Shown one piece after another: positions 1,349 to 1,509 of a DNA stretch of 64,000 nucleotides (positions are counted from its first letter, which is position 1; the number at the start of each line of letters is the position of its first letter). Made by a program: the position numbers and the translations under genes. Location of the stretch: the sequence record ON871820, one strand, 5' to 3'. The DNA comes from Escherichia phage vB_Eco-B1.1. The notes under the pieces are model-generated. The model saw nothing but the letters and a program-made list of their open reading frames with translations. It was not told the DNA's origin and searched no databases.

Positions 1349-1378
1349 GTTTACTTCCTCCAAGGGTTTTGATACTAT
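1349..1378 (+). promoter_or_regulatory. early promoter (GTTTAC ... TACTAT)
   Basis: GTTTAC 1349-1354, -10-like 1373-1378. Confidence 0.55.
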
Positions 1379-1405
1379 ACATTCATCAACTACTTGGAGG
1401 AAATT

Positions 1406-1509
1406 ATGACCCGTCCGAAGCGTCCATTGCGATAAATCAAGCACGCTTAGATGAAAAAATTGATCAACGTCCGACTTGGTACAAATACTTTGGTAAATCA
1501 ATTTACTAA
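1406..1509 (+). pseudogene. denV: denV (pyrimidine-dimer glycosylase, endonuclease V) remnant with internal deletion and frameshift
   Basis: ATG-ACC-CGT (MTR) stops after 9 codons; frame from 1408 encodes [33 protein letters not shown], the recognisable denV C-terminus. Confidence 0.6.

Follow-up and report, generated by a model that had tools for sequence, protein, structure and literature searches.

The segment at positions 1349–1509 of the DNA analysed here, a stretch of 64,000 nt from Escherichia phage vB_Eco-B1.1 (sequence record ON871820; hereafter the window), is very probably a pseudogene of denV that was generated by a 310-bp deletion between two 13-bp direct repeats in a parent allele of the RB69/G2133 type. 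The product of denV in T4 is endonuclease V, a pyrimidine-dimer DNA glycosylase/AP lyase. The source phage is T4-like (Straboviridae, Tevenvirinae), and the + strand of the window corresponds to the direction of early transcription in T4. The first 25 kb of the window are 95–97% identical to many Tequatrovirus genomes, none of which is identical to it, and the top match to this part is Escherichia phage 235Ecol030PP (96.9% identity, 94% query coverage). The features of the locus and its surroundings are the following, where IP denotes an internal head protein.

103–543: nudE
580–1068, + strand: gene e, an open reading frame for a T4-type lysozyme of 162 aa; left-hand landmark of the cassette region
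1065–1346, + strand: IP-like gene directly 5' of the denV remnant (phrog_3499, E 1e-46)
1349–1378, + strand: promoter-like element, GTTTAC (1349–1354), 15 nt and TGATACTAT (1370–1378), recognised by motif and conservation
1396–1400, + strand: Shine-Dalgarno sequence GGAGG of denV, kept; read from the sequence and the same in intact alleles
1402–1414, + strand: deletion junction, formed by the one copy of the 13-bp direct repeat AATTATGACCCGT that is left
1406–1435, + strand: mini-ORF at the native denV ATG, MTRPKRPLR then TAA, 9 codons, from translation
1408–1509, + strand: out-of-frame 3' remnant of denV, codons 105–137 and stop, from translation, tblastn, PHROG and DNA alignment
1516–1776, + strand: second IP gene, 3' neighbour of the remnant, with its own ribosome-binding site (phrog_2667, E 2e-19)
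1838–2416, + strand: ipIII-like internal protein gene (phrog_5341, E 1e-117)
2445–3121, + strand: homology to T4 post-denV sequence that extends into the vs.8-like gene; right-hand border of the variable cassette region
2582–3121, + strand: vs.8-like gene (phrog_1488)

The remnant is orthologous to denV, as it combines C-terminal DenV homology with the genomic position, neighbours and flanks of the intact alleles. The counterpart of the IP gene at 1065–1346 also precedes intact denV in G2133, SA79RD and JK42, and that of the IP gene at 1516–1776 also follows intact denV in SA79RD. Counterparts of gene e carry a lysozyme or endolysin annotation in all relatives examined, and phrog_5341 is the PHROG family noted for the CDS at the ipIII position of the T4 record. 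From 2445 onward, directly after ipIII, the window is the counterpart of T4 post-denV sequence: positions 2445–2620 are 97.7% identical to positions 3918–4093 of the T4 locus (L006), and this T4 segment starts 1 base past the denV stop.

Direct reading and translation of the locus gave the same start region as the first-pass annotation, which had been made from the sequence alone. GGAGG is followed by the native start codon, and the frame opened there (ATG ACC CGT CCG AAG CGT CCA TTG CGA TAA) begins with the three codons of the DenV start (MTR) and ends after nine. In the frame that starts at 1408, 33 residues correspond to endonuclease V residues 105–137, and their earlier recognition as the C-terminus of that enzyme is confirmed by similarity searches. 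In tblastn of the window, intact DenV of G2133 gave 32 identities in 36 positions (89%; residues 102–137; E 2e-17) and T4 DenV gave 31 in 42 (74%; residues 96–137; E 3e-16), the T4 query having the same sequence as the protein translated from T4 record OZ209057. The same frame matched the endonuclease V family phrog_1183 over profile positions 100–138 of 139 (E 1e-7). A chance match between the remnant and endonuclease V can be dismissed.

In intact G2133 DenV, the Pfam domain Pyr_excise (PF03013) was found at residues 1–87 (E 4e-13), and the Pfam search of the remnant returned 0 matches. The Pyr_excise region holds the catalytic amino group of Thr2 and Glu23. Alignment of the intact allele to two solved structures of T4 endonuclease V, 2END and 1VAS, covers its full length. 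In the window there is no single full-length ORF of ~137–138 aa, as would be expected of a functional DenV, and no Pyr_excise domain, codons 4–106 being deleted. The earlier estimate that about 100 codons, including the catalytic N-terminal region, are missing proved accurate: about 103 are gone, and the frame is shifted.

Upstream of the lesion, the promoter-like element, the ribosome-binding site and the start codon do not differ by a single base from those of intact alleles, and the arrangement GTTTAC-N15-TGATACTAT is also found, with the same spacing, upstream of T4 denV. TGATACTAT contains a -10-like TACTAT with TG before it. A generic sigma-70 scan of positions 1000–2700 did not call this element, which has 8 of 12 hexamer matches, and an Rfam scan of positions 1–6000 (E up to 1) returned no matches. 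The first-pass description of an intact early promoter holds as regards identity to the intact alleles and conservation in T4, and found no support in the sigma-70 scan; that 1349–1378 is an intact early promoter can reasonably be inferred.

To define the lesion, the locus was compared with those of other phages. A megablast query of 801 bp (positions 1040–1840) matched 238 phage records, mostly with 95–99% identity. Some records matched as a single 801-bp piece and others in two pieces spanning ~1106–1110 bp, and the two-piece records carry an endonuclease V annotation. When two deleted loci, those of the window and of Shigella phage Phaginator, were aligned at the DNA level with the intact ones of G2133 and SA79RD, the flanks proved collinear, with isolated substitutions only, and a single internal gap of 310 bp was seen. 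Locating the breakpoints, as the first-pass annotation had proposed, thus gave one clean gap with a 13-bp repeat at its ends.

In JK42 and NicPhage, the intact locus contains only one direct repeat of at least 10 nt, namely AATTATGACCCGT, in two perfect copies whose start-to-start distance is 310. The copies occupy positions 1535–1547 and 1845–1857 of one intact locus (L020), and the same spacing of 310 is seen in a second one (L021). Copy 1 consists of the spacer past the ribosome-binding site and the codons ATG ACC CGT (Met-Thr-Arg), and copy 2 lies within codons 103–107, AAT TAT GAC CCG TCC (Asn-Tyr-Asp-Pro-Ser). In SA79RD, ATTATGACCCGT recurs 310 bp past its start-codon counterpart ATTATGACTCGT, with one mismatch, and in the window it occurs once. 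The two copies agree at all 13 positions in JK42 and NicPhage and at 12 of 13 in G2133, SA79RD, JK45 and KAW3E185. What was lost is one copy of the repeat and all that lay between the copies, that is, codons 4–106 plus one base; since 310 equals 3 x 103 + 1, translation from the start codon enters a new frame and stops after nine codons. The spacing of the copies in the undeleted allele is the length of the deletion, and the junction (1402–1414) consists of a single copy, free of insertions and rearrangements.

When slippage or microhomology recombination acts on two short direct repeats, a deletion with one remaining copy is the classic result, and the structure of the junction points to this route in the present case. 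The parent would have been a denV of the RB69/G2133 type, located between two IP genes and carrying AATTATGACCCGT twice. Recombination or replication slippage between the copies would have removed one of them together with the intervening DNA, and with it codons 4–106, which hold the whole catalytic and DNA-binding domain. The native start now gives only MTRPKRPLR, and the last 33 DenV codons survive out of frame, without a start of their own. Comparable events have been described in experiments with T4, in which deletions of 0.7–6 kb and amplifications were bounded by microhomologies, typically of 6–10 bp, with one copy left (PMC9391042). None of the six intact alleles compared combines a 13/13 repeat with the downstream haplotype of the window, as the exact parent would: JK42 and NicPhage have the perfect repeat and a different downstream IP allele, and SA79RD and G2133 have the downstream haplotype of the window, but a 12/13 repeat.

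The first-pass annotation had attributed the lesion to a shuffling of the IP cassettes around denV. The cluster is indeed arranged otherwise than in T4, and the interval from e to vs.8 is variable, with a single IP in T2 and nothing in T6. However, six relatives with the same gene order as the window carry an intact denV of 414 bp, so that the arrangement predates the deletion. Moreover, the flanking DNA keeps its order and almost all of its bases right up to the breakpoints, both of which fall within the denV locus, in a 13-bp repeat whose spacing is the size of the deletion. An origin of the lesion as a by-product of cassette rearrangement is hence very unlikely, and that part of the first reading was given up, the 13-bp repeat being sufficient to explain the deletion.

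The distribution of the deleted allele was examined with a 90-bp junction probe, for which a single full-length match marked a deletion carrier. The probe matched 215 GenBank records, and 15 of them, corresponding to 13 phages of two genera, are carriers: G4498, G8, BF15, Phaginator, F27, 235Ecol030PP, JM17, FL18, Shinka, JM10, FL12, FL44 and FL23. Intact denV is present at the locus in more than 190 database records. The carriers originate from Germany, Poland, Denmark and the USA, and from manure, sewage and pig faeces. A scan of IMG/VR for the junction found one contig of 169,650 bp, which is probably phage G8 itself and adds no environmental evidence. A junction produced by faulty sequencing or assembly can be dismissed almost with certainty: the junction of the window is found in 12 of the 13 phages, which were isolated independently and come from several laboratories, Shinka being one base off, and the alleles differ in their flanking haplotypes. 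The deleted alleles were sorted into four types.

Window type (the window and five phages): remnant substitutions AGT to AAT and GCT to GAT, absent from the six intact alleles
Intermediate type (F27, JM17, FL18): the first substitution only (AGT to AAT)
Further decayed type (JM10, FL12, FL44, FL23): neither substitution; one more base lost (GATGAAAAAA to GATAAAAAA) and one T changed to C
Variant junction (Shinka): ATGTCC, not ATGACC; remnant matching the 3' end of the G2133 allele at every base

The second repeat copy of G2133 reads ATGTCC, like the Shinka junction. The simplest account of Shinka is that a G2133-type allele underwent a deletion of its own, the crossover having taken place in the left half of the repeat; its junction may instead have arisen by gene conversion. 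This pattern suggests that the 310-bp deletion recurred. The deleted allele adjoins lysozyme and nudE sequences of Tequatrovirus type in some phages and of Mosigvirus type in others, and its presence in both backgrounds implies that it either moved by recombination or arose more than once. The extra 1-bp deletion and the substitutions seen in the remnants are consistent with the decay of a dead gene.

Persistence of the remnant in 13 phages, together with the open frame over the C-terminal 33 residues, could be taken to mean that it still codes, be it for a 65-aa ORF (1312–1509), for the 46-aa ORF starting at TTG that is annotated in JM17 and FL18, or for the 9-aa peptide. Database annotation lends some colour to this: JM17 and FL18 list a 141-bp 'endonuclease' CDS (positions 1504–1644 of loci L012 and L013), and JM10, FL12, FL44 and FL23 a 150-bp 'hypothetical protein' (1504–1653 of loci L015–L018). 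Most annotators, however, call nothing here. Neither TTG has a ribosome-binding site: the one at 1312 is part of the upstream gene, and the one at 1369–1371 is part of the promoter-like element and would be missing from any RNA started by that element. Furthermore, the whole Pyr_excise domain is gone, and in four phages the extra 1-bp deletion breaks the frame again. The annotated ORFs that start at the TTG within the promoter-like element are very likely spurious, and a coding function of any of these products is highly improbable, which leaves the remnant best regarded as a pseudogene.

An intact denV elsewhere in the genome was sought, as a second copy would have altered the predicted consequence. 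None was found in the 64-kb window, either by tblastn (E up to 10) or with a DenV profile against six-frame ORFs. For the ~104 kb of the phage genome beyond the window, 235Ecol030PP, the closest relative overall and a carrier of the same deletion, served as proxy; tblastn and the DenV profile detected only the remnant, and no second denV, in its complete genome of 167,904 bp. 235Ecol030PP keeps uvsX-, uvsY- and uvsW-like recombination-repair genes. A weak match to the DenV profile at ~21527–21676 of the window (E 0.004) was rejected as a second denV, being the C-terminus of endonuclease VII (gp49). The match, of 15 bits, aligns the endonuclease VII ORF at 21206–21690 to DenV residues 56–102 and is also present in 235Ecol030PP. 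Similarity between the C-termini of endonuclease VII and endonuclease V has been reported.

From the sequence it is predicted that the remnant locus is still transcribed from the promoter-like element, to yield at most a 9-residue peptide, and that the phage makes no endonuclease V. Its sensitivity to UV in the dark would be about that of T4 v- mutants. Life in dark, enteric habitats is presumably what makes the loss of denV tolerable to these phages.

Whether denV was lost because its loss was favoured is a separate question. Selection could have acted, for example, through a saving of genome length under headful packaging, escape from a host factor or altered expression of the downstream IP gene. 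Loss of the gene has been repeated by different routes, namely the 310-bp deletion (probably more than once), the cassette without denV found in T2 and the larger absence in T6; the deleted allele occurs in backgrounds of both Tequatrovirus and Mosigvirus type; and deletions in evolved T4 make up for amplifications in other places (PMC9391042). On the other hand, the deletion is present in only ~15 of ~215 records of the allele family, and a neutral account needs no more than a 13-bp repeat and relaxed selection where light is lacking (manure, sewage, pig faeces). A selected loss is considered unlikely. A bolder proposal, to which slightly less credence still is given, would make the repeat of RB69-type denV a recurrent hot spot and the loss positively selected in gut and sewage coliphages, with spread between Tequatrovirus and Mosigvirus. 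Under this proposal, independent losses would comprise the 310-bp deletion, at least twice, as well as the T2 and T6 configurations, and recombination would be spreading the allele for an advantage that goes beyond the mere uselessness of UV repair in darkness. The reading retained here is a deletion between the 13-bp repeats that may well have been neutral.

The remnant is an ordinary pseudogene; neither its gene family nor this type of mutation is new, and T-even phages without denV are already known. What is added is small, consisting of the explanation by a 13-bp repeat and the hint of recurrence, for an allele that was already public and of which no description was found. Literature searches for the deleted allele, or for the loss of denV in T2 and T6, gave nothing usable, 'denV' being swamped by papers on dengue. 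The importance of the case is modest and it opens no new biology. It nonetheless provides a clean example, at the sequence level, of a T-even phage losing an accessory repair gene, with a predicted v--like phenotype of UV sensitivity in the dark. It also flags an annotation problem, the remnant being left unannotated or called 'endonuclease' or 'hypothetical protein' in 15 GenBank records, and the absence of denV is a practical detail for phage therapy or UV inactivation.

Compared with T4, the window has a homologous promoter-like element, the ribosome-binding site, the MTR start and a 3' end that is 74% identical over a 42-residue alignment. By contrast, the 13-bp repeat is absent from T4 denV, in which the longest repeat shared by start region and gene body measures 7 bp, and the window lacks 310 bp and has a broken frame. 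Gene order also differs: it is e, ipIII, ipII, denV, vs.8 in T4, where denV follows ipII and is not placed between two IP genes, and e, IP, denV remnant, IP, ipIII, vs.8 in the window. The intact alleles of G2133, SA79RD, JK45, JK42, NicPhage and KAW3E185 share the two flanking IP genes with the window, and intact records of the RB69/G2133 type are ~97–98% identical to the 801-bp query; they differ in encoding the full protein of 137 aa, whereas the window keeps one copy of the repeat and nothing of what lies between the copies.

Several further differences were observed at the right edge of the cassette region. ipII is absent from the window at 2417–2444, ipIII ending at 2416 and post-denV sequence beginning at 2445; at this position G2133 and BF15 have an ipII-like gene of 303 bp, another difference in cassette content. 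The segment 2445–2581 is G+C-rich and in the T4 annotation forms the first 37 codons of the 216-aa vs.8. An in-frame TAG at 2570–2572, present in the window and in T2 (TAT in T4), interrupts this 5' part of vs.8, and the vs.8-like gene of the window probably starts at ATG 2582. A perfect hairpin at 2459–2476, CCTCAT-gattct-ATGAGG, sequesters the ATG further upstream. That the nucleotides of the 2445–2581 segment are highly conserved although its frame is broken hints at a role at the RNA level; the segment had no Rfam match.

T2 and T6 are reportedly about twice as UV-sensitive as T4, a difference said to map to v (denV) in work attributed to Streisinger (in 1956) and Harm (in 1963). In T2 (AP018813), homology to T4 extends through e, gives way to a single gene of 474 bp and returns from the last base of the T4 denV stop onward; this 474-bp gene, between e and the post-denV sequence, is a single IP cassette misannotated as 'valyl tRNA synthetase modifier'. 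In T6 (AP018814), a regB-like gene comes directly after e. No denV-like sequence was found in the 20 kb examined of either genome (55–75 kb; L004 and L005), and both loci are also devoid of ipII and of the body of ipIII. The interval from e to vs.8 is a variable cassette region, since its contents differ among T4, T2 and T6, and these comparisons indicate that denV has been lost by several routes. They fit the classical view in which T2 and T6 owe their greater UV sensitivity, relative to T4, to the lack of v (denV) function. Whereas T2 and T6 have no remnant of denV, both ends of the gene survive in the window, so that the deletion event can be reconstructed. In being bounded by a short direct repeat of which one copy is left, this event resembles the microhomology deletions of evolved T4 (PMC9391042); it differs from them in its longer repeat of 13 bp, in being a small deletion within a gene, and in belonging to a natural, circulating allele.
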